Shown piece after piece: positions 17,342-37,088 of a stretch of 64,000 nt of DNA; the first letter of the stretch is position 1, and every line of letters begins with the position of its first letter. Source of the stretch: a virus (Duplodnaviria > Caudoviricetes); IMG/VR virus record IMGVR_UViG_3300014656_000027, positions 1,704-65,703 of that record; one strand, given 5' to 3'. The translations under genes and the position numbers were made by a program. The notes under the pieces are model-generated. The model saw only the letters and a program-made list of their open reading frames with translations, was not told where the DNA came from and did not search any database.

Positions 17342-18700
17342 ATGGAATTTGCCGATTTAGGGATTAAAGAACAAAAAGGGAGACAGCGTTACGCAACAAT
17401 ATGTCCTGAATGTGATTCTACAAGAACAAAGCATCAAGGGGCAAAATGCTTAACCGTCAATGATGAAGTTGGTAATCGTTGGTACCGCTGCTCGCACTGT
17501 AGCTGGTCGGGTAATATCGACTTTCAAGGACGTTATGATGCTGTGAAAGAAAAGAGTAAGATACCTACAACACAGAAGGCATTTAGCTTAAAAGTAAGGG
17601 AGTATTTCCAGAAGCGTGGAATAACTCAAAACACGGCAAAGAAAGCTAGGTTATATGAGATGCAGCAAGGGCAAAGAACGATAATATGCTTCCCATATTT
17701 TATGAGCCTCACCTTAGTAAACGTTAAGTACCTCAATATGGACTGGACTAAAGGAGATAAAGGGCCAAAATGGTTTCAGCTACCAAAAGATTTAGGTACA
17801 AGAATAATCCCGTTCGGATTACAGCACATCAAAACACATGATGAAGAAGGGACTAAATTCCCAAAAAATACGTTAATTATAACAGAGGGGGAGTGGGATA
17901 TGCTTACTTATATGGAGTGTGGGTATGTTAATGTAATTTCTGTACCACAGGGAGCTCCATCATTAAACAGTAAGAACTTTGATAAGGAGTTTGCTTACTT
18001 ACAAGATAAATACGTGGTAAGCGTTCTTGCAGATATTGATTTGATTTATTTAAGTGTGGATAACGATGAACCTGGAATTAACTTAAGGGGGCATCTTGCT
18101 ATGATACTCGGCAAAGAAAAATGCAAGGTTATTCGCTACCCCCCTGGTTATAAGGATATCAATGAGGTGTTTGCTGGTGATGAGAAGAAAGGATTAGAAG
18201 CGTTAGGGAAAACAGGAGTGGATGAATGCCTCTCTAACTCATCATCAGTACCTATAAAAGGAGTTGTTAAGGCATCACACGTAAGAGAAGATCTTGATAT
18301 GTTACGTAATCAAGGATTCACAAAAGGATTAGGATGTGGTGTTCCGGAAGTTGATTATCTGTTTACAGTAAAACCGAAGCTAATTACTTTTATTACAGGT
18401 GTACCAGGGTGTTTCACAGGAGAACAATTAATTCATACAAATAAAGGGGTGTTACAAATCAAGGATATAAGGCGGGGAGATTATGTTTTAACTTACGATC
18501 ATTTACATAAGATTAATGAGTATAGAAAAGTAAAAGAACGTCACCATTACAAGAAACATCAAGGGAAACTCTACAGAATTACTTTAAAAGACGGGACTAT
18601 AATCAAAGTAACTGAAAATCATAAATTTTTTACAGGCGTGGAATATGTGCAAGTCCGTGAAATTATTAGTATGTTTGCAAATAAATCTAAAAATAAATAG
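17342..18700 (+). CDS. T7 gp4/Twinkle-like primase-helicase, N-terminal fragment fused to split-intein N half
   Basis: Zn finger CPEC...CSHC, TOPRIM IITEGEWD and DNDEPG, helicase start ITFITGVPG followed by intein block A CFTGEQLIHT. Confidence 0.9.
   Translation: MEFADLGIKEQKGRQRYATICPECDSTRTKHQGAKCLTVNDEVGNRWYRCSHCSWSGNIDFQGRYDAVKEKSKIPTTQKAFSLKVREYFQKRGITQNTAKKARLYEMQQGQRTIICFPYFMSLTLVNVKYLNMDWTKGDKGPKWFQLPKDLGTRIIPFGLQHIKTHDEEGTKFPKNTLIITEGEWDMLTYMECGYVNVISVPQGAPSLNSKNFDKEFAYLQDKYVVSVLADIDLIYLSVDNDEPGINLRGHLAMILGKEKCKVIRYPPGYKDINEVFAGDEKKGLEALGKTGVDECLSNSSSVPIKGVVKASHVREDLDMLRNQGFTKGLGCGVPEVDYLFTVKPKLITFITGVPGCFTGEQLIHTNKGVLQIKDIRRGDYVLTYDHLHKINEYRKVKERHHYKKHQGKLYRITLKDGTIIKVTENHKFFTGVEYVQVREIISMFANKSKNK
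18410..18697 (+). mobile_element. Split intein N-fragment (96 aa)
   Basis: Cys1 at 18410 (CFTGEQLIHTNKG), block B KVTENHKFF, then a stop at 18698. Confidence 0.9.
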
Positions 18701-18702
18701 TT

Positions 18703-19233
18703 ATGGAAAGATGGCAAACGATACCTGATTTTAGTCTTTATGAGGCTTCTACTATGGGAAGAATTAAAACTTTTAATTGGAAGAACCAAGGTTTAGAGAG
18801 AATAATGAAACCAGCCTTGGATGGTACTGGGTATTTAAGGACGATGCTTAAGGGTGATGATGGAAAAACGTCTACAATAAAAGTTCATAGGATAATACTC
18901 CGAACTTTTCGCGGAGAGCCGACTAATGATAAAAACGAATGTAATCATATAAACGGAATACGTTCAGATAACAGGGTTATGAATTTAGAATGGGTAAGCC
19001 ATTCTGAAAATATATCTCATTCATTTAAAATAGGGTTAAGTTCAAATAAGGGACAAAATAATCCAGCATCTACATTGACAGATAAGCAGGTTTTAGAAAT
19101 CAGAAAAAACTATACCTATGGTAAAAAAGCAAGAAGCGGAGTAACCAAAAAAGAACTCGCTGAACAATATGGAACAACATTTCACGTAATTAAAGCTATC
19201 ACACAAGGAAGAACATGGAAGCATCTATTATAG
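18703..19233 (+). CDS. Free-standing NUMOD4-HNH homing endonuclease between the intein halves
   Basis: WQTIPDFSLYEASTMGRIK (NUMOD4); HRII...CNHINGIRSDNRVMNLEWVSHSEN (HNH). Confidence 0.9.
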   Translation: MERWQTIPDFSLYEASTMGRIKTFNWKNQGLERIMKPALDGTGYLRTMLKGDDGKTSTIKVHRIILRTFRGEPTNDKNECNHINGIRSDNRVMNLEWVSHSENISHSFKIGLSSNKGQNNPASTLTDKQVLEIRKNYTYGKKARSGVTKKELAEQYGTTFHVIKAITQGRTWKHLL

Positions 19234-19352
19234 AATTAGAAGATATTTTTAGTATAGAAGAAATTCCAATGGAAGATGTTTACGATCTCACCGTTGAGGA
19301 TAATTCAAATTATTATTTGGCCACAGCTAAATATCCTATCCTAGTCCACAAC
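19215..19352 (+). mobile_element. Split intein C-fragment (46 aa)
   Basis: Block F VYDLTVEDNSNY, block G LVHN, Ser+1 at 19353. Confidence 0.9.
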
Positions 19353-20240
19353 AGCGGAAAATCTGTATGGATAAGATGGTGGGTAGTAACCATGATACAG
19401 CACAATGCAGATTTAGGACTCAAATGGGCGTTGTTCACTCCAGAGAATAGACCAGTAGCCAGAGAATACGCTAAGATAGCAGAGGCGTTAACAGGTATGG
19501 CTATGGAGAAGGGGAGGCACAACAGCATGAATGATGAGATGTACCGAAAGGCAATGAATTTTGTGGAGAAGCATTTTTTTGTCATATCACCGGATAAGCT
19601 GAACTATGAGACTTTTGGAGGGAGAATAAACGTTGACAGGGTAAACACCTTACAGTCCATACAGGAGTATGTAAGCTATCTTAAAAAGACAGAGAATATC
19701 TACGGCTACATTATCGACGCTTGGAATAAGATAGAGCATGAGCAGCCTAAGATGCAGAGTGAAACTTCATTTATAAGTGAACAATTAGATAAGATGATAA
19801 ACTTCAATGATTATTGGGATTTACATGGTATCATAATAGTGCATCCTAGAAAGATAGAGATGGTGGGGGAGAACTACAAAATGCCATCACTATATGATAT
19901 CAAAGGGTCGTCAGCATGGAAGGAGAAAGCAGATATAGGAATACTAATACATCGCTATAAAATGCGTAAACTAACAGCCCATGCAGCCGCAGAGAAGGGA
20001 TTAGACTTTAATAGGCTTGATGAGGATGAGAAGTATGAAGTGGTTGAAAAAGCACCCACAATAATAAGAACAGAGAAAATAAGATTTGAGGAGTTAGGGC
20101 ATGAGAATAGAGTTAAGATGGAGATGAATGTATGGGGGAAATTCAGCGTTTCATCTAATGGGAAAAGTAAGTCGGCAGCCCCAATAAACCCTCCGAATAT
20201 TCCTGATATGGATAATGATGAAGACCTAATCCCGTTTTAA
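19215..20240 (+). CDS. Split-intein C half fused to the C-terminal SF4 (DnaB-like) helicase domain
   Basis: VHN|SGKS completes Walker A; IIDAWN (Walker B), IIIVHPRK, YDIKGSSAWKEKAD, KIRFEELG. Confidence 0.9.
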   Translation: MEASIIELEDIFSIEEIPMEDVYDLTVEDNSNYYLATAKYPILVHNSGKSVWIRWWVVTMIQHNADLGLKWALFTPENRPVAREYAKIAEALTGMAMEKGRHNSMNDEMYRKAMNFVEKHFFVISPDKLNYETFGGRINVDRVNTLQSIQEYVSYLKKTENIYGYIIDAWNKIEHEQPKMQSETSFISEQLDKMINFNDYWDLHGIIIVHPRKIEMVGENYKMPSLYDIKGSSAWKEKADIGILIHRYKMRKLTAHAAAEKGLDFNRLDEDEKYEVVEKAPTIIRTEKIRFEELGHENRVKMEMNVWGKFSVSSNGKSKSAAPINPPNIPDMDNDEDLIPF

Positions 20241-20332: not shown

Positions 20333-20563
20333 ATGTCAAAAGAATCTAAAAAAACAGAAAAATGCGAATGCCCACATTGTGGGTCAAAAGACTTCTATGT
20401 TCACGAATTTGAATATTGGAAAGCAAGTGTTGATGAAGATGAACCAAACACGATAAACTGCTGGCATAAAAGTAGTGGAATTGATTTAGTTGAATGTGCT
20501 AAATGCGAAGCCGATATTACAGAGTTAAGCCTTAATCCTAATTTTAACTTTAACTTCCAATGA
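20333..20563 (+). CDS. Small zinc-ribbon protein
   Basis: CPHCGS...CAKC. Confidence 0.55.
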   Translation: MSKESKKTEKCECPHCGSKDFYVHEFEYWKASVDEDEPNTINCWHKSSGIDLVECAKCEADITELSLNPNFNFNFQ

Positions 20564-21240
20564 TAGTCTTACATAAAAAAGATGCTTTTGCATTTTTAGA
20601 AACATTGCCAAATGAAAGCGTTGATCTTGTTTTTACAGACCCACCATATTGGACTTTAAACAAATGGCGAAATGTAGGAACAACTACAAGGCTTGGTGGT
20701 AATGCTGATAAAGACAAACAAACAGGCTGGTTTGAAACTATTGATAGTGAAGAATTATGGCAATTGATTTGTGAAATACACAGAGTTCTAAAAAAAGACC
20801 GACACGCTTTTATTATGTGCGATGGGCAAACATTAAAATGGATATTGGGATATGTAGAAGAAGCTGGGTTTGATTATTACAAGCCTTTAATTTGGGATAA
20901 AGTAAGTTTAGGAATGGGTTATCATTTTAGAAGCAGACACGAATTTATTGTGATGCTTGATAAAGGCAAAAACCGAAAGCCGAAAGATTTATCATTACCT
21001 GATATTTTTACTGTACCAATGGCAAAAGGTGGTTATCCTACTCAAAAGCCTTTAGGATTAATAAATCCATTTATTGAGCAATTTACGGAAGAAAACGAAC
21101 TTGTGGTTGATCCTTTTTTTGGAAGTGGAACAGTGCCTTTAAGTTGTCAAGATTTTAAAAGAAACTTTCAAGGTTCAGATATAAGTGATAAAGCACATAA
21201 ATATACAAATGAAAGACTTGGGGTATTATCATTATTTTAA
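20560..21240 (+). CDS. DNA N6-adenine/N4-cytosine methyltransferase (beta class)
   Basis: VFTDPPY catalytic motif, YPTQKP and VVDPFFGSGT SAM-binding motif. Confidence 0.9.
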   Translation: MIVLHKKDAFAFLETLPNESVDLVFTDPPYWTLNKWRNVGTTTRLGGNADKDKQTGWFETIDSEELWQLICEIHRVLKKDRHAFIMCDGQTLKWILGYVEEAGFDYYKPLIWDKVSLGMGYHFRSRHEFIVMLDKGKNRKPKDLSLPDIFTVPMAKGGYPTQKPLGLINPFIEQFTEENELVVDPFFGSGTVPLSCQDFKRNFQGSDISDKAHKYTNERLGVLSLF

Positions 21241-21422
21241 AAGTACGAGAAAGTTATATTGCCATTTTAAAAATAAACATATTATGGAAGAATTAATTTT
21301 AAACAAATACTCAAGAACACTTAGCTTACGAGCAAGATCAAATACCTTTCTGATAACGGGGGGGCTATGTGCCATGGCGTATTAGCCCGTGTTATAATTA
21401 GTTAAATTTAAAAATAGAAATT

Positions 21423-21548
21423 ATGAAAATTAGAAAAATTGAGCCACCAAGTGTTAAGATAGAATCAAATTTTTTATGGTATAAAAGGATTTGGATACTT
21501 ATAAGAAACCCTTTCACCTACATATTTAAAGGTTATGTTGAATGGTAA
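21423..21548 (+). CDS. 41-aa cassette-borne hypothetical protein (MKIRKIEPP...GYVEW), not in ORF track
   Basis: Fills the unit 21391-21559; stop abuts the AAC core. Confidence 0.5.
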   Translation: MKIRKIEPPSVKIESNFLWYKRIWILIRNPFTYIFKGYVEW

Positions 21549-21658
21549 TTAATTATAACGGTACGGCAATATGATTAGTTGCCATACTACAAATTTTAAA
21601 AATTAGTAATAACTTGACAGGCAATTAATTATATTGCTTGTTATAAACTGATAAAATT

Positions 21659-21844
21659 ATGACAAAATTAGAGATGAAACTTGGTAGAAGAAAAATAATG
21701 CTCGAAGAACGCAAAGAGCAAATTTTGAATGATATAAAAGGCAGACCAACATTGACCAGCGATATGATTATTCACGAAGCAAAATTATTAGATAAAATTG
21801 ATATTCAAATTTGCGAACTTGAAAGAATGCTTGCCCGTGAATAA
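21659..21844 (+). CDS. Cassette-borne hypothetical protein (61 aa)
   Basis: Fills the unit 21640-21861. Confidence 0.6.
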   Translation: MTKLEMKLGRRKIMLEERKEQILNDIKGRPTLTSDMIIHEAKLLDKIDIQICELERMLARE

Positions 21845-21927
21845 TTTTATTTGTTTATAACGTTCAGGCTATGTGCAGTGCAATTAACGACAAAACTTAA
21901 AAGAAACGATAAAAAATAAAAAAAGGG

Positions 21928-22179
21928 ATGGAAAAACAAATAAAAATAGCAGCAAAACTCTATGAATGTAGAGATACTGCAAAACGATTCTTCAGAGAAG
22001 ACTATTCAGAGAAATTACGAACATATAAAAATGTGATTGAAGGACACCAAAAGAAATTTAATTTAGATGTGCTTCCAAGCGTGTATGAGATTTGCAGCTT
22101 GGAAAGCGTGAGAGATGACGGAATGATGACAATGTTATTTATGGCAGCCGCGGTAGAGTTAATTGAACCAAGTGCGTAG
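21928..22179 (+). CDS. Hypothetical protein (83 aa) nested inside a hairpin loop
   Basis: Lies wholly between the arms at 21867-21881 and 22235-22249. Confidence 0.6.
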   Translation: MEKQIKIAAKLYECRDTAKRFFREDYSEKLRTYKNVIEGHQKKFNLDVLPSVYEICSLESVRDDGMMTMLFMAAAVELIEPSA

Positions 22180-22392
22180 GCTTTTTATTTTTTGCTTATG
22201 ATACCGATAAAAGATTTTATAAAGAGACAAAAACGCATTGCATATAGCCCTTGTTGTGTGCCGTTGTTCTTTGTTAGGGGCGTTGCAGATGCTTATAAAC
22301 TTACAAATTTTAATGCGAATGCATTTTCAATGGTCACACAACTTAGAAATATATACCATACACTAATTTAATGTATAATAAAAACAAGAACA

Positions 22393-22647: not shown

Positions 22648-23042
22648 GAGACATTAAAAAAGAAGTAGCAAAAGAGCTGGAGCATTTCAAGTTATGGTAT
22701 TGTGATCCATTGAACGAGAGGGTGGACAATGGCAGATCCGTCATGGATGGGTGGGACGAACAAAACATCCCTGGTGATAAGCAAAAAGCTATGGACTTAT
22801 TCCGAAAACTGGATGCTCAGAATGTAGACTTTCACAGATTGTTTCATTCTATCAACCGTATGCTGGATGTTTATAATCAACAACAATTACTACTCCTAGA
22901 GGTTTATAATGAGTGGTATAATCTAGTTTCCATAGAAGGGAAGCAGCCCACGGCATTAATGAGTTCACAGGTGAATGTGTTACAAGCCATCTTTGATAAG
23001 ATACAAGGGAATATTGATTTAAAAAAGAGCAAGAAGAAATGA
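22644..23042 (+). CDS. Hypothetical protein
   Basis: 132 aa ORF coupled to both neighbours. Confidence 0.55.
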   Translation: MRDIKKEVAKELEHFKLWYCDPLNERVDNGRSVMDGWDEQNIPGDKQKAMDLFRKLDAQNVDFHRLFHSINRMLDVYNQQQLLLLEVYNEWYNLVSIEGKQPTALMSSQVNVLQAIFDKIQGNIDLKKSKKK

Positions 23043-24142
23043 GAAAAGATTTAAAAGTACATTTGATAGAGCCTCACAGCGAAGAGTGGTATAAGTTTCG
23101 CATGAATGGTATAGGGGGGTCTGAGATAGGAACCGTATTAGGAATTAACAAGTACGACACCGCAGTTCGTTTATACCATGAGAAGATAGGAAACATAGAA
23201 CAACGCAGAATAGATAGCGAGAGAATGTTCTGGGGAAGGATGAATGAAGACAACATAGCTCGCGTCTGGGGTTTTTACGATGGGACTAAAGACGGCTACG
23301 TCGAGAACTACAACAACAATAAAATAGTTCGCAAATGCCGATCCGTAAATGGCTATGTAGTAAATCCTGATTATCCTTGGTTGTTTGCATCAGTGGATAG
23401 GTTAATAAACATTGAAGGAGGCTTCAACCTAATCACAGGAGAGCCATTAGAGAAAGAGGGTATATTAGAATGTAAGAATATGAGTTATTGGGTATCTCAG
23501 ATGTGGGAAGATGGAATACCTATATATCACCTTGCACAAATATCTCAATACTTTATTGTTTTAGATTCTGATTACGCGGAGATAGCTATGCTAGTTGATG
23601 GAGGGCAATTACAGGTGGAGAAGATTATGCGTGATGACGCGTTGACAGAACGCATCATAAGTATATCTAAGAACTTTTGGTATAATCGCATAGTACCAGG
23701 TAGGGAAGCTGTAATAAAGCGAAACGAAGCTGATATGCAGGGTAATCTTGGAGAAAGTGAGAAATGGGAAGCGGAGATACAGAGATATGAGCCCGAACCA
23801 GACGAATCGGAAGCCTACAAAGACTTTATGGAAGAGAAGTTCTTAAAGGTAAGAGAATCTATTGACGGCACAATGGAGCTATACAAGGTAGCTAAGTATG
23901 ATAATTTCCTTAAGTCTCTTAAGAATAAGATAGTCAAGGAGCGCAACAGATGTAAGAATTTATTTATACAATTTTTAGGACTACACGGAGCAGAGAGTGT
24001 TGACTTCGGAAAGTTAGGAGTGGTTAACTGGTCACCACGAAAAGGGTCTAAGAGTAGAACCTTCAACAACCGCACAAAGGAAAAGCCTAGTGAGGATGTT
24101 ATAGAAAGAGAATTTGAAAAGTTAGAAACTGATTTATTCTAA
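23039..24142 (+). CDS. YqaJ-like (lambda Exo family) recombination exonuclease
   Basis: EEWYKFRMNGIGGSEIG, FASVDRL, ILECKN, AQISQY. Confidence 0.85.
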   Translation: MRKDLKVHLIEPHSEEWYKFRMNGIGGSEIGTVLGINKYDTAVRLYHEKIGNIEQRRIDSERMFWGRMNEDNIARVWGFYDGTKDGYVENYNNNKIVRKCRSVNGYVVNPDYPWLFASVDRLINIEGGFNLITGEPLEKEGILECKNMSYWVSQMWEDGIPIYHLAQISQYFIVLDSDYAEIAMLVDGGQLQVEKIMRDDALTERIISISKNFWYNRIVPGREAVIKRNEADMQGNLGESEKWEAEIQRYEPEPDESEAYKDFMEEKFLKVRESIDGTMELYKVAKYDNFLKSLKNKIVKERNRCKNLFIQFLGLHGAESVDFGKLGVVNWSPRKGSKSRTFNNRTKEKPSEDVIEREFEKLETDLF

Positions 24143-27878: not shown

Positions 27879-28234
27879 ATGAAAAAAATTACAGTTAATC
27901 ATCCTGAATTTTATAATCTTAACTTTAAATTCATAGAAGAAGAGTGGAAAGACATTCATGGATTAGAAAATGAATACCAAGTGAGTAATTATGGGAGGGT
28001 TCTTTCTAAAGAGCGATTTGTAAAAGCAAAGGGACTACAATACGTTCCTGGTAATTTAAGGAAAATTCAAAAAACCAGAGGTTGGTTACACGTATCCTTA
28101 AATGTTAATGGGGAAAAATTCATTTAGGTTATCATAAAACCGAAAAAAAAGCATTAGAATCATATAATAATTTTATACAAACAAAAGAAGAGTATTATGG
28201 AAAAAGAGAACAAATCAGCGTCGTCACTTGTTAA
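27879..28234 (+). pseudogene. Degenerate NUMOD4-(no HNH)-AP2 homing endonuclease remnant
   Basis: EEWKDIHGLENEYQVSNYGRV (NUMOD4), stop at 28127; the -1 frame continues IHLGYHKTEKKALESYN (AP2-like). Confidence 0.6.
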
Positions 28235-29744
28235 ATTTAAAAGCCTGTTAAATCAGGAGCAAATTAAAAACAAGTTTAATGAAGCATTAGGCAAGAAGGC
28301 TCCAATGTTTATTAGTAACTTAGTTACAATAGCAAGCGGAAGCGCAGAACTACAGAAATGTGAGCATATGAGTATTATCTCATCCGCGTTAATGGCTGCA
28401 AGTATGGATTTACCCTTAACACCAGGGTTAGGTTTTGCGGGCATTGTTCCTTATTGGGATGGACCATCAGGAATGATGAAGGCTCAGTTTCAAGTAATGA
28501 AGAAAGGATTCATACAATTAGCACAGAGAACGGGGTTGTTCAAAACTATTAATGTTTGTGAGGTTTATAAAGGAGAGATAAAAAAACACAATCGGTTTAC
28601 AGGAGAATATGAGTTTGATGAGGCAGGGAAATTGTCGGATGAAATCATCGGCTATGTTTCTTTCTTTAAATTAGTTAATGGGTTTGAGAAGTTTTATTAT
28701 ATGCCTATTGAGAAGCTTGAGACACATGCTAAAAGATATAGTAAATCTTTCCAAAGAGGAAAAGGAAAATGGGCAGATAAAAGCGATGGAGGTTTCGAGC
28801 AAATGTGTGAAAAAACCGTTTTAAAACTTAATTTATCTACCTACGCACCTCTTAGTGTTGATATCAATATGATGAATGCAGTTATCTATGATCAGGCAGA
28901 AATAAGAGACGTCGAAGCTAAAGAGTATGAATATATGGATAATGATGAGGCTTCCGAACAAAAAACGTTAGAGGTTTTTGAAACTAAATCTGGGTCTAGT
29001 ATAGTGGTTGATAAAAAACACATGGACAGAGGCGAAACTTTAATAAGCAAAGCCAACGCTATCATAGACAAGCGTAATGGGAAGGTGGATGAGAAAGACG
29101 CACTTGAAATAGCTTTTGATAAAGAAGTTCCTCCTTTAAGAAGGGGGATGGTAGTAATCAAGGATGGAGTGGATAATATCATTCCTATTTACACGGATGC
29201 TGAGATGGCTAAAATGCAGACTGATGAATTAGATGGCTTAATCAATACTGATGATGAAATGATAATAGCCACTAAAGTTATACCAGGTAGAAACACCAAT
29301 AAAAAGCTTCGCACAATTATTTTAGCAAAGATTGACGGAACGTTAAAACAATTACTTGATGAGAATGAATCAGATCCTAATACTATCGTGGAGGAAACCA
29401 CAAGCACATCCCCACCAATAATGTTAGATGATGATGACCCCTTTAACGTACCAATGGTAGCAGTAGAAAGTGAAGATGACGATGTTGACACCAACAACGG
29501 CACAGATGATTATGAGTCTAATGTGTTCGGCATAATGGTTACAGACAACCCAGGAGGAAGAAGACCATTTGATGAGGTAAAGCAGTTGCATGAGGAGTTC
29601 AGCACAATTGCAGGACTAGATAACACTGCATTCATATCTATCTTAAGCACAAAGCTTCCACAGTTTCAACATTACAAGAATATGGAGGAGTTTTGCTACA
29701 GCGGAACAAAGTCGGAAATAAACACCTTGCTTAATAGCATATAG
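28197..29744 (+). CDS. recT: RecT-family single-strand annealing protein with long acidic C-terminal extension
   Basis: SIISSALMAASMDL...LGFAGIVPY...AQFQVMKKGFIQLAQRTG...W...FEQMCEKTVLK. Confidence 0.85.
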   Translation: MEKENKSASSLVKFKSLLNQEQIKNKFNEALGKKAPMFISNLVTIASGSAELQKCEHMSIISSALMAASMDLPLTPGLGFAGIVPYWDGPSGMMKAQFQVMKKGFIQLAQRTGLFKTINVCEVYKGEIKKHNRFTGEYEFDEAGKLSDEIIGYVSFFKLVNGFEKFYYMPIEKLETHAKRYSKSFQRGKGKWADKSDGGFEQMCEKTVLKLNLSTYAPLSVDINMMNAVIYDQAEIRDVEAKEYEYMDNDEASEQKTLEVFETKSGSSIVVDKKHMDRGETLISKANAIIDKRNGKVDEKDALEIAFDKEVPPLRRGMVVIKDGVDNIIPIYTDAEMAKMQTDELDGLINTDDEMIIATKVIPGRNTNKKLRTIILAKIDGTLKQLLDENESDPNTIVEETTSTSPPIMLDDDDPFNVPMVAVESEDDDVDTNNGTDDYESNVFGIMVTDNPGGRRPFDEVKQLHEEFSTIAGLDNTAFISILSTKLPQFQHYKNMEEFCYSGTKSEINTLLNSI

Positions 29745-29748
29745 TTAG

Positions 29749-29824
29749 TATCTTTGTAATCTAACTCTTACTTACAGTTATTAATTAGGGTAGTTGGCCG
29801 ATATGGTTTAACTGCCCTTTTTTT
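29749..29824 (+). promoter_or_regulatory. TAnnTTTG promoter followed by a terminator-like leader hairpin
   Basis: tatctttg at 29749; agggtagttggcc/ggtttaactgccct plus T run. Confidence 0.6.
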
Positions 29825-29844
29825 ATTCATTAAATATTTACGAC

Positions 29845-30060
29845 ATGAGAATACAAACAGTTAAATCACAACACAGAAGAGATTTTATAGCCATTTTTGA
29901 ATGCGAGCACTGTGGTGCAACAAAAGAAAGATCAGGATATGATGATGATAATTTTCATCGTAACGTAATTCCTAAAATGGTATGCGAGAAATGCGGAGAA
30001 GTGGCTCCAGAAAATTATCGTCCGCTAGGGACTAAATACCCTTGGTATAAGGAGGTGTAA
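29845..30060 (+). CDS. Small zinc-ribbon protein
   Basis: CEHCG...CEKCG. Confidence 0.6.
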   Translation: MRIQTVKSQHRRDFIAIFECEHCGATKERSGYDDDNFHRNVIPKMVCEKCGEVAPENYRPLGTKYPWYKEV

Positions 30061-30296
30061 TGGACAACATAGATAAATTATTAAAATCAAATATCACCAT
30101 CACAAAAAAACAATGGAGAAAAGTGTGGGGATTGATATTCTTGCGTGACACAAAGCTAAAAGAAGTTGAGCTATACATGGAGTGGTCACAAGACTTGGAA
30201 GAGGATAGTTACGCGAGAAAGATGGCAGAGAAGAGGCAAAACGAAGCAGAGACTATTGATGATAGAATACATGAGCATTTGAAAGATTTAGCATGA
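30060..30296 (+). CDS. Hypothetical protein
   Basis: 78 aa, coupled to the upstream gene. Confidence 0.5.
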   Translation: MDNIDKLLKSNITITKKQWRKVWGLIFLRDTKLKEVELYMEWSQDLEEDSYARKMAEKRQNEAETIDDRIHEHLKDLA

Positions 30297-30455
30297 CTCC
30301 GTAACATCATATTCCATAATTGTAATCAGTACTGACTAAATCTTAATTAGCCAGTCATTAGAGATTAACAATTTGTTCACAACTATAATTTCTAATACAG
30401 ATGACTTTAAAAAAAGACTTATTGATTTTGTACAAAAATATATAGAGTTAATTAC

Positions 30456-30486
30456 TTGACTTTTATAATTTGTATATATATATTTG
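30456..30486 (+). promoter_or_regulatory. Bacteroidota-type promoter
   Basis: TTGAC (30456) and tatatttg (30479). Confidence 0.65.
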
Positions 30487-30509
30487 CAGTCACATAAATA
30501 TAATTACAA

Positions 30510-31277
30510 ATGGATATAAAAAAATTTACAAAATCGGAATTTGGAACATTGACAACGATTACCAACGAAAAAACAGGCGTCGTTATGTTTCTTGCAAAAG
30601 AGATCGGTAAGATGTGGGGTCATTCCAACATGAAGCAAGTAGTAACAAGGCTTCTTAATGAGCAGGAATATAAAGTGGTAAACAAATCTGAGCACCCGAA
30701 GTTCTTTAAATTATTAGTAAGTAACAAATTGTTACCATCAAAAGCACAACGTATTCAGTTCGTTACAGAATCTGGTGTTTACAAACTTGCATTAGCATCT
30801 AATCTTGAAAAAGCTAAACCTTTTAAAGATTGGGTCACTTCGGAAGTACTTCCTGCAATCAGAAAGCACGGATATTATTCTTTAGCAGATCAATCTAATA
30901 AGATAATGATACATGCAAGTATCCCTGTTCAAAAAAGTAACAGTAAAGCCGTAAACTCAAAAAATTATATTGAGAGAGGGATTGAGGGCATTATTCAGTA
31001 CAATAGAGAAAGCTGTTTACTCCACACCGGGAAATCTACAAAGGATATTAAGGAGATGGGAAAGAAAGTAGGGCTTAAGTCTGTAGAGAGATCATCAGCA
31101 AAAGAAGTCCTTCGTCACACAAAGCCAGAATTAGCCTGTGCGATGAGTTTTACTGATTCCTTAACACAACAGGGCTTTGATCTTAAAACGGTCTCTGAGC
31201 TTGCGTTAAAAGCTGCTGTGCCGTTATTTCAGGGAATGATTGAGCTAGGTATTAGACCAGCAGAACTTGATGATTAA
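30510..31277 (+). CDS. BRO-N domain protein (antirepressor-like)
   Basis: FVTESGVYKLALASNLEKAKPFKDWVTSEVLPAIRKHGYY. Confidence 0.85.
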   Translation: MDIKKFTKSEFGTLTTITNEKTGVVMFLAKEIGKMWGHSNMKQVVTRLLNEQEYKVVNKSEHPKFFKLLVSNKLLPSKAQRIQFVTESGVYKLALASNLEKAKPFKDWVTSEVLPAIRKHGYYSLADQSNKIMIHASIPVQKSNSKAVNSKNYIERGIEGIIQYNRESCLLHTGKSTKDIKEMGKKVGLKSVERSSAKEVLRHTKPELACAMSFTDSLTQQGFDLKTVSELALKAAVPLFQGMIELGIRPAELDD

Positions 31278-31409
31278 TAATGGGATTATGAAAGACAAAG
31301 GTTCATTAACACACATAAGAAAAGAAGTCTTTGGTATAGAGATCAGAGAACAGAAAGATGGCAATTAGAATGGGAACATAAGTGTAAATAAAAAATTAAT
31401 TTAATTATT

Positions 31410-31655
31410 ATGAAAGAAAATCAATATTACATGACAACGGCTGAAATTTATTGGCTTCCACGTAAGAGTTTTATTTATGTTTATAAGGTTTGTAATAAAG
31501 TATTTTTTTACAATTACATCCATGATTGGCAATTAGTAGAAGTAAACAAGGAAACAATCTTAAAGATAAATAAAGTTGAGAGTCCAAATTATAGGGGCAA
31601 ATTAATTGACGCTGATAATTTTAAATTATTAAAACGAGAAAGGCTTATTTTATAA
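31410..31655 (+). CDS. Hypothetical protein
   Basis: 81 aa ORF. Confidence 0.5.
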   Translation: MKENQYYMTTAEIYWLPRKSFIYVYKVCNKVFFYNYIHDWQLVEVNKETILKINKVESPNYRGKLIDADNFKLLKRERLIL

Positions 31656-31672
31656 CTTTAAAAACTTATTAT

Positions 31673-31906
31673 ATGTCAAGAATAATAACAGAAATACTAA
31701 AAGAAGCAGATGCAACAATTGATTTGCAGGGCTTAATCAATCTTTGGAATGAGATTGCCAACAACAAAAAACAATATCCATTAAGCGATATTTGGAATGC
31801 AAATAAGCATATCAGAGAACTTGCTTTGAAATCAAGCGGACAGGATATAGATAAAGGTAAATTTTATCACGAACTTAAATCACAATGCGATGGCGTTTTA
31901 GCATGA
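31673..31906 (+). CDS. Hypothetical protein
   Basis: 77 aa; stop lies just before the AAC core at 31912. Confidence 0.55.
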   Translation: MSRIITEILKEADATIDLQGLINLWNEIANNKKQYPLSDIWNANKHIRELALKSSGQDIDKGKFYHELKSQCDGVLA

Positions 31907-31984
31907 ACGCTAACTGAGCGCGGCTATGTTTAGTACCGACAAAAGAACGAGAATTTAATTATTAACGATAAAAATAAGTGAGCG

Positions 31985-32353
31985 ATGAAAAAAGAACAGA
32001 TTTTAAAATGCAACAATATACAGATTGAGAGATTAAAACAAGAAAAACCAATGCTTGTACATAATATATTAAAAGCAATGGATGATTATGCCGAACTAAG
32101 CGAACGACAAGAAACGTCTGATACCGAAATTCAAGACAAAAATAAGGTATTAAATATAGCTGTTATGCACCGTTTGAAAGCAGTACAGACTTTAAAAAAT
32201 AGCCCGGACTTACTGCTGCTAATGGCAGAATTTAAACGAGCTAATTTTGTTGGCTCATACATAGTGGAGCATCAGATAGAATCAGAAGAAGAGTTAGCAG
32301 CAGTATGGCTGTCTGAATTGGAAGCACAGTTGTTTCGGTCAAATGGTGCATAA
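31985..32353 (+). CDS. Hypothetical protein spanning a hairpin/unit junction
   Basis: Codon 60 is the core GTT (LNIA-V-MHR); stop TAA lies inside GCATAAC. Confidence 0.6.
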   Translation: MKKEQILKCNNIQIERLKQEKPMLVHNILKAMDDYAELSERQETSDTEIQDKNKVLNIAVMHRLKAVQTLKNSPDLLLLMAEFKRANFVGSYIVEHQIESEEELAAVWLSELEAQLFRSNGA

Positions 32354-32502
32354 CGGTCGGCAATATAAAATCGTGCTGGATTACGAGGCACGAAACTATC
32401 AAACCTCTACGAACTTTGAAACGAGAGAAAATATTTAATAACCGCACGAAGCCCAGCATGTTTTATATTGCGTGTTGTGCGTAGTGCTTAATAATCAAAA
32501 TT

Positions 32503-32727
32503 ATGGGAGCAATACACGATTCAGAAAAAAGATTAAAAGAACTATTTGATTTAGAACAAGCACTTGGAATTAACCAAGAAGATAGGTTTCATAATTCCGA
32601 AGAAGGGAAAAAACAATATGAAGCCTGTTTTGAAAATCACCCTTCGTGCGATGATGTAAAAAGTGAAGCAACTATCGAAGAACTTACAGCAAAAATTGAA
32701 AAATACAAGCGTGGTGATTTTTCTTAA
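32503..32727 (+). CDS. Cassette-borne hypothetical protein
   Basis: Fills the unit 32474-32740. Confidence 0.6.
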   Translation: MGAIHDSEKRLKELFDLEQALGINQEDRFHNSEEGKKQYEACFENHPSCDDVKSEATIEELTAKIEKYKRGDFS

Positions 32728-32776
32728 CATTATGCACAACTTAGAAATATATACCATACATCATTAAACAGGAAAC

Positions 32777-33001
32777 ATGAAAAAAAGAGAAATATCATTA
32801 GGGAAAACAAATAGTGAGCCTTGTCCTAATTGTAAGGAAACGATTAAACAATGCGCCTGTATGCGTAATATCTGCAATAAATGTGGTAAGTCTGTTGGCA
32901 ATATTACTTTTACAGTATGTGATGAGTGTTGGGGCGAACAAAGAAAATGCGTTTGGTGTGGAAATCCTAACATATTTAACGGATTAAAACAAATAATATG
33001 A
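32777..33001 (+). CDS. Cys-rich zinc-finger protein
   Basis: EPCPNCKETIKQCACMRNICNKCGKSVGNITFTVCDECW; paralogous to the 33309 C-terminus. Confidence 0.65.
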   Translation: MKKREISLGKTNSEPCPNCKETIKQCACMRNICNKCGKSVGNITFTVCDECWGEQRKCVWCGNPNIFNGLKQII

Positions 33002-33306
33002 AACAATTAGAAGATTTTTTAGAAGAAGAATTAAAAGTATTAGAATTACAGCGGTTTGATTGGGGACATTTAACCATTGAAGATGAAAGTCGGGAAAGAA
33101 CGCTGTTAGAAGTGCGGGAAGTAGTTAACAAACAACAACAAGCAGCTTATGTTCCCAACTGTGATTTATCTGAATTTGCAATTAATAATTTCAACCATAT
33201 TCTGGAAATATCACAAAAAATAACAACTGGTAATGTATCGCACAAAAGAATTACCATAGAGGGAATTGCAAAAAGAAGTGTTGAATTTATTAAAAAATAT
33301 TATTGA
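32998..33306 (+). CDS. Hypothetical protein
   Basis: 102 aa, coupled. Confidence 0.5.
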   Translation: MKQLEDFLEEELKVLELQRFDWGHLTIEDESRERTLLEVREVVNKQQQAAYVPNCDLSEFAINNFNHILEISQKITTGNVSHKRITIEGIAKRSVEFIKKYY

Positions 33307-33308
33307 AA

Positions 33309-33593
33309 ATGAAAGCAAAAAATAATATATCAATTGGTGATAACATTGAATTTGTTTCAGGAAATTTTAAAGGATTGACTGGAATAGTCACAAACACCGA
33401 ATACGGGAAACAATTTAATGCAGAAACCAAGCCTGACGGTTATACATTGTTAGCAACTGAGCCTTGTGCCAATTGCAAAGAAACTGTTAAAGAATGTGCT
33501 TGTATGAGAAACATTTGCCATAAATGCCAAAAACCTGTGGGGAACATAACCTTTACAATATGTGATGAATGTTGGGATATAGAGTTTCCATAA
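33309..33593 (+). CDS. Chimeric protein: KOW-like N-terminus plus cassette-borne Cys-rich domain
   Basis: IGDNIEFVSGNFKGLTGIV, then EPCANCKETVKECACMRNICHKC encoded inside unit 33449-33610. Confidence 0.6.
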   Translation: MKAKNNISIGDNIEFVSGNFKGLTGIVTNTEYGKQFNAETKPDGYTLLATEPCANCKETVKECACMRNICHKCQKPVGNITFTICDECWDIEFP

Positions 33594-33659
33594 AGGGCTT
33601 TGTTGCTAACGGAACGCAGGTATGTGAAGATTTTTTAACGATAAAAAAAGGAGAATATT

Positions 33660-33902
33660 ATGAATGGATTGATAAAATTAATAGAAGAAGAATTTAAGAA
33701 AAATGATATAAACTTTGATAATAGCTTAAATGCTAATTATATAGATGATAGTTTTGGGGCTGTTATGATATGCATTGAAAATGTAGTTAAAAATTTGCAT
33801 ATACCTGATGTTGTGGGTATGTTGCCGAAATGCGAACATAGAAACATTGATAGACAGGATGGTTGTGATGAATGCCTAGATTGTGGTGTAAGAAACTATT
33901 AA
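33660..33902 (+). CDS. Junction-spanning hypothetical protein with C-terminal Zn ribbon
   Basis: Codon 51 is the core GTT (LHIPD-V-VGM); CEH...CDECLDCG downstream. Confidence 0.6.
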   Translation: MNGLIKLIEEEFKKNDINFDNSLNANYIDDSFGAVMICIENVVKNLHIPDVVGMLPKCEHRNIDRQDGCDECLDCGVRNY

Positions 33903-33995
33903 AGGCAATTACCTACAACGGAACGCAGCTATGTTTGGGTGCGGATTACGAAGCAATTAACTTTCAATAAATTATAAACATTAATACGAGAAAAA

Positions 33996-34205
33996 ATGAA
34001 TGATTTACCACAAAAACCACAATCAAATATAGGTGCTGTTAACGGCTGTGCTTCACACTCTTGGGATAAAGTGAAGGGTATTAAAATAGCAGGAAAGCCA
34101 TGGGTTGGCATTAAAAGCAAGACAGTTAGAACCTGCACAATTTGCGGATATAAAGAATATTGGACAAATGACGGTATGTTCTGCGGGTGGTTTAGTATTG
34201 CGTAG
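33996..34205 (+). CDS. Junction-spanning hypothetical protein with Zn ribbon
   Basis: Codon 15 is the core GTT (NIGA-V-NGC); HSW...RTCTICG. Confidence 0.6.
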   Translation: MNDLPQKPQSNIGAVNGCASHSWDKVKGIKIAGKPWVGIKSKTVRTCTICGYKEYWTNDGMFCGWFSIA

Positions 34206-34354
34206 CATTGCCGTTAACGTTAAAATATATGATTAGTAGCCGTAAATAAGCGACTACCTATCGAGTTAAAAACTAAATTAATAAACACTTAATAGCCTTT
34301 AAAATAAGCACAACACAGGCTATTAATTATATATAGTGTTGTGCATAGTACGGT

Positions 34355-34597
34355 ATGAAAATTAAAAAGAAACACTTAAAAACGATTGAAGTAGATGTAA
34401 ACAAAAATGGTGGTTTTACCGTTTGGATAACAGAAAAGCGATTAATTAACGGACAAAAAAAGAGCATTAAACATTGGATATTAGACGGAAGTTGTATAAA
34501 AGAAGATGGCGAAATTAGGTTAGGGAATTATGAAAGAAATGACATTAATGCGGTGCATCGTAAACAGAACAATACCATTTATGTGGTTAAGAAGTAG
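34355..34597 (+). CDS. Cassette-borne hypothetical protein
   Basis: Fills the unit 34338-34610. Confidence 0.6.
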   Translation: MKIKKKHLKTIEVDVNKNGGFTVWITEKRLINGQKKSIKHWILDGSCIKEDGEIRLGNYERNDINAVHRKQNNTIYVVKK

Positions 34598-34752
34598 TAT
34601 TATGCACAACGGTCGGGGCTAAGAATAGGCAGGGATAACGAGCAACACCCTTTCAGCCTACACGAATGATAAAACGAAGCTCACAGGCTTGATTAAGCAC
34701 ATACGCCCTGCTTATTTTTAGCCTTTGTTATAGGGCGTTTATTCTTATTAAA

Positions 34753-34935
34753 ATGAAAAATTTAGCAGAAATTAAATCAAAGTTTGAAAGTTCAAAACAA
34801 GAACTTATTGATAAGCAGAAAGAGTATAATAACCTTTCTCAAATCAGCTGTATGGATTCAGGTGGTCGTTTACTCGATAATCAAATTCAGGTGTTAAAAG
34901 GAGTTGTAAAAGCGTTGGAGTGGGTTCTTCTTTAA
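34753..34935 (+). CDS. Cassette-borne hypothetical protein
   Basis: Fills the unit 34727-34947; ends ALEWVLL. Confidence 0.6.
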   Translation: MKNLAEIKSKFESSKQELIDKQKEYNNLSQISCMDSGGRLLDNQIQVLKGVVKALEWVLL

Positions 34936-34976
34936 ATGCCCTATAACTTGTTTATATGTACAACTAACTTATCCAA

Positions 34977-35246
34977 ATGATTGATATAATTGAAATACAA
35001 GAGAATTTAAAATTTGTAAAACATCTACAAATAAAGTTCAGATTTAAAGGTTTGGATTATTTAGTGTCAGATAAGTACGGTAATTTTTTTGCCCTGCCTC
35101 ATTGCCCAGATAAACGCACCATACCATTTAAACAACTAAAGAAAAATCAAAATTACATATACTATCACGGGTCGAAAAAATATTTCCCAGAGCTCAGGAA
35201 GAAAAGAGTTGTGGTGAACGAGCGTTATTTAATCCCTATTAATTAA
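34977..35246 (+). CDS. Hypothetical protein
   Basis: 89 aa ORF. Confidence 0.5.
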   Translation: MIDIIEIQENLKFVKHLQIKFRFKGLDYLVSDKYGNFFALPHCPDKRTIPFKQLKKNQNYIYYHGSKKYFPELRKKRVVVNERYLIPIN

Positions 35247-35333
35247 TATTTACTATATTTGTTTAAACTAAAATGATGAAATTATGAGAAATACTTCCTA
35301 CAACATCAGCAGTATCAACGAATACAGATAGTT

Positions 35334-35897
35334 TTGCTACGGCAATCCCTCTTACTTATAATTCTACTTCTCCTTACTTCAAAACTAGCTAATCCAGAAG
35401 TAGTAAAATACACTCCTCCAAAAGTGCCTGTAGACTTTATTGCCTTACAACAAAGAGTAATAATAAAAACATTCAGTAAGATAGAATCTTCTTATAATCC
35501 ATTAATCTATAATAAAGAGGAGGGGGCGGCAGGACTACTCCAGATAAGGCCCATAATGCTCCACCACATCAATAAAATATGTAATACTACTTTTACCCTT
35601 CAAGATCGCTTTGACTCGCTTAAATCAACGCAAATGTTCTTTCTTTACCAATATTACTACAATCCTCAATTAAAAATAGAAAATGCTTCTAGGTTATGGA
35701 ACGCAGGAGACAGAGGGATGCACAAACCAAAATCAACGCAAGGGTATTACGAGAGAATAAGAAAAGAATTTATCAAGGTGGCGTCACAGGAGCTGCAAAA
35801 GCTAGATATTAAGCAGCCCACAATCATTAAAAAACATTTTCCTAACTTCGGGAGGACGTACACAATAAAAAGCCTCGAACGAATCGAGGCTAATTAA
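35334..35897 (+). CDS. Lytic transglycosylase (SLT/lysozyme-like) with N-terminal hydrophobic segment
   Basis: KIESSYNP...GAAGLLQIRPI...DRFD...WNAG; start codon uncertain. Confidence 0.75.
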   Translation: MLRQSLLLIILLLLTSKLANPEVVKYTPPKVPVDFIALQQRVIIKTFSKIESSYNPLIYNKEEGAAGLLQIRPIMLHHINKICNTTFTLQDRFDSLKSTQMFFLYQYYYNPQLKIENASRLWNAGDRGMHKPKSTQGYYERIRKEFIKVASQELQKLDIKQPTIIKKHFPNFGRTYTIKSLERIEAN

Positions 35898-35997
35898 TTG
35901 AGAACATTGTCTATTTGGAAAACACTAATATAGTTCAAAAAAACACAAAAAGCAAGTAAAATTTTAATTATGTTTATACACTCAAAAAAAATAACAG

Positions 35998-36489
35998 ATG
36001 GGAAACGTACATATATTTGAAAAACAAGGTAGAGGGGCCTTATTGACTCAGACAATGATCTTCAAACAACTTTGGCTTTATAGCAATAAACGGTCATTTG
36101 TGTCTGGTTTATACCTTCGGGATTATATGAATACTCCATATTTTTATAACTGTTTTGCTCATATTTTAGCTAAAGGGATCAATAAATATCCTCACTATAA
36201 ATTCTTAGCACGTAACATCGCACTACTAACACCAGCGGAGCATTCACTTTTTGATCAGGGCACAGAGGAGCAGAGGGAAAAGTATTGTGATGAGGTTAAG
36301 AGTGCTAATTGGCAGCCCTTATACGACCTCAGGGATGAATTAAAGCAAGAATATGATAAAGTATTTCCTACCACAATAGGAATGATGATAGGCTATAAAT
36401 ACTCACCGGAGGAGGTGATGGCAAAGGTAGGATTGATGAATAAGAAATTTTTTGAGGAATTAAGAGGCACAAAGGGAATCGAACCCTAA
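35998..36489 (+). CDS. Putative His-Me (HNH/NinG-like) nuclease
   Basis: FAHILAKG..YP...RNIALLTPAEHSLFD spacing. Confidence 0.45.
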   Translation: MGNVHIFEKQGRGALLTQTMIFKQLWLYSNKRSFVSGLYLRDYMNTPYFYNCFAHILAKGINKYPHYKFLARNIALLTPAEHSLFDQGTEEQREKYCDEVKSANWQPLYDLRDELKQEYDKVFPTTIGMMIGYKYSPEEVMAKVGLMNKKFFEELRGTKGIEP

Positions 36490-36553
36490 CCAGCGATCAC
36501 AAAATACAAGAAACTAAATAAATTAAGTTTTGCCAGGTAATCATACGTGCCTC
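36463..36553 (-). tRNA. Degenerate tRNA-like element (no assignable anticodon)
   Basis: Minus strand: GAGGCAC...GTGCCTC perfect 7-bp acceptor stem, AGGG-TTCGATT-CCCT T arm, CTGG D-loop-like motif; central arm AT-rich and non-canonical. Confidence 0.45.
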
Positions 36554-36573
36554 ATATCTTTGTATATATTGTT

Positions 36574-36834
36574 TTATTTATTTGGAGCATATCTCACCGA
36601 ATAGTAATCTGTTTCTGAGTTAAAATTTGGATCTATTTCGCTGAAACGCTTGTTTAGTTCTGTGGGTGTTACTCCTAATATGGTTTTCATTATACTTGTA
36701 AACTGATTGATACGATTACATTTATTCACGAAAAAAACTAGGTCTTCCCCTTTTAGTGTCTTTGTTTGCCGCATCCACTTGTCTAAGGTGATGAGAGTGA
36801 CAAATACTCCGTGTTTAGTTTCTATTTCCATCAT
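36574..36834 (-). CDS. Hypothetical protein
   Basis: 86 aa, last gene of the minus-strand block. Confidence 0.5.
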   Translation of the reverse strand: MMEIETKHGVFVTLITLDKWMRQTKTLKGEDLVFFVNKCNRINQFTSIMKTILGVTPTELNKRFSEIDPNFNSETDYYSVRYAPNK

Positions 36835-37088
36835 ATTCCGTAGATATCGTTTAAAGGAATAGTAACGTATTTACCTCTTTCATCTTTCATGTAAACCGTC
36901 TCATCCTGGTAGTCAAAAGAAATTACTTTTGCTGTTATTCTTTCTTCACCAATAAAATAAGAACAAAGCATTCCTGTTTTATCGTCGCAAATAGCGCGCT
37001 TTAAACGCTTAAGGTTAGCGGTTTCTCTTATCATGAAGTACACCACAATTAAAAAACCTAATACAAAACAACTTATTAATATTTCCAT
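36831..37088 (-). CDS. Hypothetical membrane-anchored protein
   Basis: N-terminal hydrophobic helix; overlaps next gene by 4 nt. Confidence 0.5.
   Translation of the reverse strand: MEILISCFVLGFLIVVYFMIRETANLKRLKRAICDDKTGMLCSYFIGEERITAKVISFDYQDETVYMKDERGKYVTIPLNDIYGI

Follow-up and report, generated by a model that had tools for sequence, protein, structure and literature searches.

Three small genes of an uncultured phage are probably composite reading frames (we put the probability at about 0.7), belonging to an integron-like cassette system of phages whose hosts are probably Bacteroidota. They lie in a 64-kb stretch of DNA, called here the window, which covers positions 1,704 to 65,703 of the IMG/VR virus record IMGVR_UViG_3300014656_000027 (linear, 65.7 kb, 89% complete, about 36% G+C). 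Each gene begins in the loop of a hairpin, runs through the right arm and the GTT core at its foot, and continues into the following unit, that is, the stretch between two hairpins; the part before the core is called here the head and the part from the core on the body. The reading is carried by hairpins whose stems covary, by limits of similarity that fall sharply at the AAC and GTT cores, by many-to-many pairings of heads and bodies, by frames which stay open across loci, and by a signature of purifying selection on two of the heads. The elements on which the argument depends, all on the + strand, are the following (lengths in nucleotides, nt, or amino acids, aa; H4 to H7 are hairpins).

31912 to 32164, + strand: H4, expanded hairpin of 250 nt (AAC 31912-31914, arms 31922-31937 and 32146-32161, GTT 32162-32164)
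31985 to 32353, + strand: gene 1, 122 aa; head of codons 1-59 (loop and right arm), V60 = GTT, body of codons 60-122
32162 to 32354, + strand: gene-1 unit (the body), with perfect 10-nt inverted cores GTTATGCACC and GGTGCATAAC
32352 to 32476, + strand: H5, canonical hairpin of 122 nt, headless, with ATA at the position of the ATG of H7
33309 to 33593, + strand: gene 4, 94 aa; KOW-like N-terminal part, remnant right arm 33432-33448, GTT 33449-33451 and Cys-rich body
33449 to 33610, + strand: gene-4 unit, bounded by GTTAGCAAC and GTTGCTAAC
33608 to 33812, + strand: H6, expanded hairpin of 202 nt (AAC 33608-33610, arms 33617-33635 and 33789-33807, GTT 33810-33812)
33660 to 33902, + strand: gene 2, 80 aa; helical 50-aa head, V51 = GTT, 30-aa Cys/His knuckle body
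33810 to 33919, + strand: gene-2 unit, bounded by GTTGTGGGTA and TACCTACAAC
33917 to 34040, + strand: H7, canonical hairpin of 121 nt (AAC 33917-33919, ATG 33996 in the loop, GTT 34038-34040)
33996 to 34205, + strand: gene 3, 69 aa; 14-aa head MNDLPQKPQSNIGA, V15 = GTT, Cys-rich body
34038 to 34218, + strand: gene-3 unit, bounded by GTTAACGGC and GCCGTTAAC

An earlier note, made from the sequence alone, had placed the starts of the three genes in hairpin loops and had read the GTT core as an in-frame valine each time. Both claims were exact when the coordinates were checked, since the ATG codons lie between the arms of H4, H6 and H7, and the valine is codon 60 (GTT 32162), codon 51 (GTT 33810) and codon 15 (GTT 34038). 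The H4 loop contains ATG 31985 and about 53 codons; the stem that closes it is 16 bp long, includes G-T wobbles on the + strand and is separated by a 7-nt spacer from the left core cgcTAAC. The loop of H6, on a 19-bp stem, carries an AGGAG resembling a ribosome-binding site (RBS) together with ATG 33660. It was equally correct that a fourth gene crosses a core in another phase, the G of GTT 33449-33451 being the third base of codon 47 (ttG TTa, phase 2), and that the loop of H5 resembles that of H7 with ATA for ATG (71% over 55 nt; family D2).

Re-pairing of heads and bodies

In the case of gene 1, all 43 homologues found by protein search match only from V60-M61 on, at 70-97% identity, and their N-termini are unrelated. 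This search was blind to proteins shorter than 67 aa and, therefore, the body alone was also searched at the DNA level (tblastn), ignoring upstream open reading frames (ORFs). The body was found in 15 distinct loci including the window (18 with L002-L004, which are near-identical to L001), preceded by about nine unrelated heads, and the frame upstream of the GTT was open to an ATG in 15 of 15, lying 17-21 codons up, or 59 in the window; the other two upstream frames mostly close sooner. Nucleotide identity of the body to 13 of these loci reaches 80-96%, while the 120-nt flanks on either side show 47-64%, which is background. Furthermore, the gene-1 head also occurs on a different C-terminus (protein P0081 in L006), and in L010 the gene-1 body stands behind a relative of the gene-3 head.

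Gene 2 shows the same behaviour. Its 18 homologues have only the last 30 residues in common, behind unrelated heads of about 45-50 aa which end in LxIxxVV, and the body has no conserved start of its own. In L148 and L151 this body lies behind hairpins of 191-196 nt, with stems unrelated in sequence yet paired and with the GTT in phase 0; the end of the unit is conserved there, and divergence begins directly past the AAC. The gene-2 head was in turn found on a different C-terminus, P0083 in L023. An AlphaFold model of gene 2 (predicted local distance difference test, pLDDT, 67; predicted template modelling score, pTM, 0.27) presents a helical head, a coil spanning the junction at residues 46-60 and a small beta knuckle, a predicted fold which is suggestive only.

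For gene 3, matches in the representative library begin at residues 14-22. Its head was sought with a 15-nt pattern of the H7 right arm against IMG/VR, keeping only matches with a paired left arm, as chance hits are to be expected. The family so obtained comprises 14 loci, one of them a duplicate; at least 12 unrelated bodies are represented, and all 14 are open in phase 0 from the loop ATG. Heads one or two residues off MNDLPQKPQSNIGA stand on two other bodies in L070 and L113. Between them, the hairpins of these two loci and of the window show an identity of about 88-90% from AACG through GCTGTTA, with no relatedness past either foot. As a separate observation, P0102 is a protein of 2764 aa with 24 tandem copies of the gene-3 body domain.

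Only the right arm of the gene-4 hairpin is left in the window, an intact version being present in L020 and L024. Conservation of the Cys-rich body begins at (LLA)TEPC; the N-terminal parts before it measure 9-110 aa, and it has no conserved start. A family search of IMG/VR gave 12 loci, with clear sites in L024 only. This body occurs twice in the window (32815-32933 and 33458-33576, 77% nucleotide identity), one copy being free-standing in gene 32777-33001 and the other fused behind the KOW-like N-terminal part with half a hairpin. The earlier suggestion that the bodies are often compact zinc ribbons stands in part: three of the four are Cys-rich and one is modelled with modest confidence as a small beta knuckle, but a Pfam search of ten small proteins, all four bodies included, gave nothing significant.

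Taken together, the prediction that one N-terminal part would be found on different C-terminal parts was borne out, the converse (the same bodies behind different heads) was also found, and homologues never align across the valine junction. Several bodies have no start of their own. The heads are genuine coding sequence, because the frames are open in all loci and the ratio of non-synonymous to synonymous polymorphism (pN/pS) is 0.14 for gene 1 against L006 and 0.16 for gene 2 against L023, values by which these two heads are judged to be under purifying selection.

Structure of the sites

Sequence reading together with a core-anchored stem search identified nine hairpins of one family in the window, which share a plan of RYYYAAC, an unpaired spacer of 4-9 nt, stem, loop, return arm, 0-3 nt and GTTRYRY. 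The same search over 2.15 Mb of fetched loci gave 84 hairpins versus 6 in shuffled sequence, 55 of the 84 measuring 118-122 nt from AAC to GTT with a peak at 121 nt; an energy-only sliding fold of the window, in contrast, failed to single out the sites. Across 48 distinct sites (alignment A8) the invariant positions are the AAC, one G of the left arm, one T and one A of the right arm, and the GTT. RNAalifold predicted 17 stem pairs in these sites, with compensatory double changes in 15. In all 48 sites the invariant G pairs with the invariant T as a G-T wobble (G 33938 and T 34023 in H7), beside which the neighbouring pairs covary freely. Moreover, the stems total 142 G-T pairs versus 15 A-C, and the downstream gene lies on the folding strand in 51 cases versus 12 in which it does not. 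Because of this covariation, the invariant wobble, the excess of G-T over A-C and the bias in gene strand, the hairpin structure is selected on the coding strand, as single-stranded DNA or RNA; the invariant wobble, which is present on the coding strand only, is likely a recognition mark. In 50 of 60 sites the left core reads TAAC and, since the TAA stop of gene 1 lies within the next left core (GCATAAC; 32349-32354), this core can supply a stop in one frame.

The units between hairpins have two ends that are perfect inverted copies of each other: GTTATGCACC/GGTGCATAAC, GTTGTGCATA/TATGCACAAC, GTTATAGGGC/GCCCTATAAC, GTTAACGGC/GCCGTTAAC and GTTAGCAAC/GTTGCTAAC. The remaining members of the family and their units are distributed as follows.

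21356 to 22260, + strand: first array, of the same site family, with H1 (about 21356-21396), H2 (21557-21642) and H3 (21859-22255)
34216 to 34947, + strand: remainder of the second array, with H8 (34216-34340) followed by a unit with gene 34355-34597, and H9 (34608-34729) followed by a unit with gene 34753-34935

The units of H8 and H9 both have their own starts past the core, the latter unit ending at AAC 34945-34947, and the gene behind the headless H5 (32503-32727) likewise has its own start. The 353-nt loop of H3 contains an entire gene of 83 aa (21930-22180), and thus loops are able to hold complete genes besides heads.

Reading phase at the GTT core

An ATG within the hairpin, followed by a frame that runs at least 25 codons past the GTT, is present in 43 of 63 canonical sites: 35 in phase 0, 2 in phase 1 and 6 in phase 2. 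Leaving out the sites chosen by our own queries, the split is 15:2:5 (binomial P = 9e-4). Phase 0 was thus open in 35 of the 63 sites, versus about 6% per control phase. The in-frame valine junction proposed in the earlier note therefore holds as a strong preference rather than a universal rule: phase is not random, but phases 1 and 2 do occur. The phase-2 class is self-consistent, its bodies beginning with (L/M)L.A, and, by our reading of alignment A8, a frame in phase 1 would run into stop codons in the arm consensus that is seen most often. The LxIxxV motif arises from phase 0, in which the site's invariant T, A and GTT belong to Leu, Ile and Val codons.

Cassette boundaries and proposed mechanism

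Three groups of loci (L008/L011/L012, L013/L018 and L015/L019) share, within each group, left arm, loop, head and body; the members of a group diverge ahead of the left AAC and past the AAC of the unit. No pair was found that shares a unit together with its downstream hairpin, the downstream hairpins differing in 13 of 13 comparisons. Since upstream hairpin and unit are inherited together and downstream hairpins never are, the upstream AAC is the main boundary, and the usual cassette is a hairpin together with the gene that follows it, the cut falling at the AAC foot. The many-to-many pairing of heads and bodies, in turn, requires a second exchange zone at the GTT core. The idea that cassette junctions fall inside genes has accordingly to be amended: the principal junction lies upstream of the gene, at the AAC, and the GTT core is a second zone. 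Heads and bodies are indeed re-paired, but the hairpin normally moves with its gene and most cassettes carry a whole gene. As regards the exact crossover, unrelated bodies have about 10 nt after the GTT in common (VMRS, VSGS, VSCS, VISR, etc.) and some metagenome contigs remain alike for 13-27 nt past it; therefore, the break at the GTT core stands, but the crossover can be placed no finer than within the core, and not at the proposed G^TT position.

In the favoured explanation, the site is a coding-strand hairpin, canonically of about 121 nt and of about 200-250 nt in H4 and H6, which precedes its cargo. In order, it consists of TAAC-G, a few unpaired spacer bases, a stem of about 17 bp that contains the invariant G-T wobble, the loop, the return arm and T-GTTA, and in about half to two thirds of cases the loop carries a start codon. 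From this codon, translation would run along the 3' arm, cross the GTT core and enter the body. Exchange between phages would occur at both hairpin feet, usually at the AAC foot, moving hairpin, head and body together, with the GTT core as the second zone in which heads and bodies are re-paired; as most coding sites share one phase (Val), most re-pairings would be in frame. A tyrosine recombinase, presumably supplied in trans, would act on the folded single-stranded DNA, and the chimeric proteins would be made and would be useful. The broader interpretation of the system as a natural, phage-borne combinatorial assembly of proteins, in which leaders of 14 aa to domains of 50-60 aa and start-less bodies are re-paired in frame from a pool spanning unrelated phages, with an LxIxxV linker derived from the invariant bases of the site, stands in our judgement at even odds.

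Alternative explanations

Several results weigh against the cassette reading. No tyrosine recombinase was found in a PF00589 search of the window phage (65.7 kb, 89% complete), controls being positive, nor in three complete site-bearing phages, the contigs of four runs show no excision joints, and the two metagenomes with the phage show neither excision nor rearrangement joints. The breakpoint, which had been expected at the GTT core with its LxIxxV motif, does fall at the core, but not in L023 and L006, where it lies off any recognisable core: the gene-2 head of L023 diverges about 6 nt ahead of the window's GTT, where L023 has no GTT core, and divergence from the gene-1 head in L006 starts about 40 nt before the arm. 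In these two loci the "heads" of genes 2 and 1 are the N-terminal portions of genes of the ordinary kind, the one in L023 being contained entirely within a single unit. Furthermore, the existence of phases 1 and 2 means that some pairings would leave the frame, the phase sample is modest and comes from loci reached via two or three query families, and the 10-nt core common to unrelated bodies blurs the crossover.

The absence of a recombinase from the window phage implies either that the catalyst acts in trans or that the hairpins are conserved linker modules, comparable to the promoter-stem-loop cassettes of T4-type phages. In that case homologous or microhomology recombination via RecT and YqaJ, with no dedicated site-specific recombinase, would shuffle heads, bodies and hairpins; similarity would then stop at AAC and GTT because the conserved linker stops there. 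This second possibility, which we consider improbable, draws on the YqaJ and RecT genes that the phage encodes between its arrays, on the lack of a tyrosine recombinase in most site-bearing phages checked, on the 88-90% identity of same-family hairpins over some 120 nt, which is enough for annealing, and on the off-core breaks of L023 and L006. Nevertheless, one and the same body is found behind hairpins which share the AAC and GTT cores alone, with the boundary still at the core; the unit-specific perfect inverted ends of 9-10 nt are what a circular cassette intermediate predicts and homology-driven exchange does not; and, with its invariant wobble, constant length of 121 nt and bias in strand, the hairpin looks like a folded structure that is recognised. 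Of 10 other site-bearing records checked, 2, both jumbo phages, carry tyrosine recombinase frames, of 267 aa (G010, L152) and 270 aa (G008, L153 1471-2283), and one further record has a broken recombinase fragment. G008 is a 288-kb phage with terminal repeats in which several kb separate the recombinase from the array in L130.

That the hairpins act mainly in the mRNA, presenting the start codon in the loop or serving as a processing or stability element, with the modularity as a by-product of phage mosaicism, is a less probable explanation still, even if it is the coding strand that folds, G-T (G-U) pairs are allowed in the stem, one of them being invariant, and RBS and ATG are located in loops. 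An Rfam scan of the region gave no match, and a role in mRNA leaves unexplained the unit-specific inverted ends, the arrays cut at AAC and GTT, and the fact that in other phages this site family is found beside a recombinase. Such a role is compatible with the cassette explanation, not exclusive of it. Finally, an annotation artefact, in which the true starts would lie at or after the GTT and the upstream stretch would be untranslated, is highly unlikely. It could appeal to the ATG present in the core of gene 1 and to the blindness of the protein search to short forms; against it stand the upstream frame, open with an ATG in all 15 loci of the DNA search, the excess of open phase 0 over control phases, the lack of a conserved start in the bodies of genes 2 and 4, and the low pN/pS of the heads. 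The ATG within GTTATGC was rejected as the true start of gene 1, given that upstream frame and the fact that GTTATGCG is the common core of unrelated bodies beginning VMRS, its ATG being core consensus.

Comparison with known systems

Integron-type sites move whole, promoterless genes. The integron platform can also supply translation, as with ORF-11 in attI1, where cassette genes are fused to attI-derived N-termini. Start signals outside the cassette there express start-less cargo, as would be the case here, but that platform is one fixed site, while the phages have a family of mobile head-coding sites with many-to-many reassortment. In shufflons (R64 Rci/sfx) and the tail-fibre invertases Mu Gin and P1 Cin, site-specific recombination within a reading frame swaps C-terminal segments. 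The in-frame exchange of alternative C-terminal segments is common to both; unlike the phage modules, which are common to unrelated phages and proteins, shufflons invert a closed local set in one gene. The promoter-stem-loop cassettes (PeSLs) of T4-type phages, reportedly described by Arbiol et al. in 2010, are likewise stem-loop elements between small early genes tied to modular shuffling; they differ from the phage sites in being intergenic, promoter-bearing and homology-driven, with no AAC/GTT cores, unit-specific inverted ends or read-through coding.

The closest comparison is with integrons and with the integrase-less attC clusters (CALINs) that Qi et al. (2023, PMC9892861) described from virulent phages, among them a Polaribacter phage. 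The likeness extends to RYYYAAC and GTTRRRY-like cores, an imperfectly paired hairpin whose spacers are unpaired and whose loop varies, strand-biased folding, arrays of small same-strand ORFs, and complementary unit ends such as a circular cassette would give. Cores closing an imperfect hairpin, with at least two sites in a row, define attC arrays and CALINs, and nine such sites are present here; the integron layout, in which each ORF has its attC behind it and the crossover is at G^TT of R', is not found, nor is an IntI-type recombinase next to the array (no PF00589 match in 65.7 kb). Unlike the integron arrangement, the site of the window phage travels ahead of its gene and not behind it, and it is the coding strand that folds; read along this strand, the geometry is that of an integron cassette (site, then cargo), but with the cargo gene encoded on it. 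About half of the phage sites, moreover, contain a start codon and would be translated through, the GTT foot forms a second exchange zone, and the window phage has no IntI. Coding sites go unmentioned in section 3.4 of PMC9892861. Synthetic attC sites, on the other hand, have been placed in coding sequence as peptide linkers and tested with IntI1 (Nivina et al. 2020, PMC7439510); the phage sites share with that design a structure-specific recombination site which encodes a peptide linker between two protein parts, and differ in that the arrangement is natural, widespread and includes the start codon. A search of the literature on coding attC sites and flavobacterial phage cassettes, in which PMC9892861 and PMC7439510 were the only relevant papers, gave no natural sites with start codons joining protein parts in frame.

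If sites do lie inside reading frames with a preferred phase, phages could make new chimeric proteins in one step and could express start-less gene fragments. This would be the natural counterpart of the synthetic "attC-in-a-linker" design (PMC7439510), and also a new origin for the small early proteins, quick to change, with which phages act against their hosts. In practice, gene callers and homology searches will misread such genes unless head and body are handled separately.

The phage and its setting

Among isolated phages, the only capsid relatives are Cellulophaga (Flavobacteriaceae) phages at 21% identity, a weak hint that the host may belong to Bacteroidota. A near-identity DNA search of 29000-37000 against isolated phages gave 0 matches, and no relatives of the window RecT protein could be confirmed in IMG/VR. 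The runs in which the phage is present are groundwater and biofilm metagenomes, no RNA run being listed among them, and in the biofilm metagenome of a second study a single contig covers 33322-34174 with the identical arrangement and 0 differences. In run X1, the summed contig depth over the H5 region (32336-32502) is about five times that of its neighbours because related hairpins lie on other contigs of the same sample; such sites will break short-read assemblies.

The arrays sit in the early/replication part of the genome, with genes for an N6/N4 methylase (20560-21240), YqaJ (23039-24142), RecT (28197-29744) and a Bro-N protein (30510-31277), those of YqaJ and RecT lying between the two arrays. 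A 26-bp sequence after the last AAC of both arrays, a candidate from the earlier note, is repeated by eye (22337-22362 and 32735-32760) and had no match in an exact search of IMG/VR. The split intein also noted there agrees with what was observed at 17342-20240, where a Toprim primase ORF ends in a Hint/intein N-terminal part and ORF 19215-20240 begins with a weak match to an intein C-terminal part.

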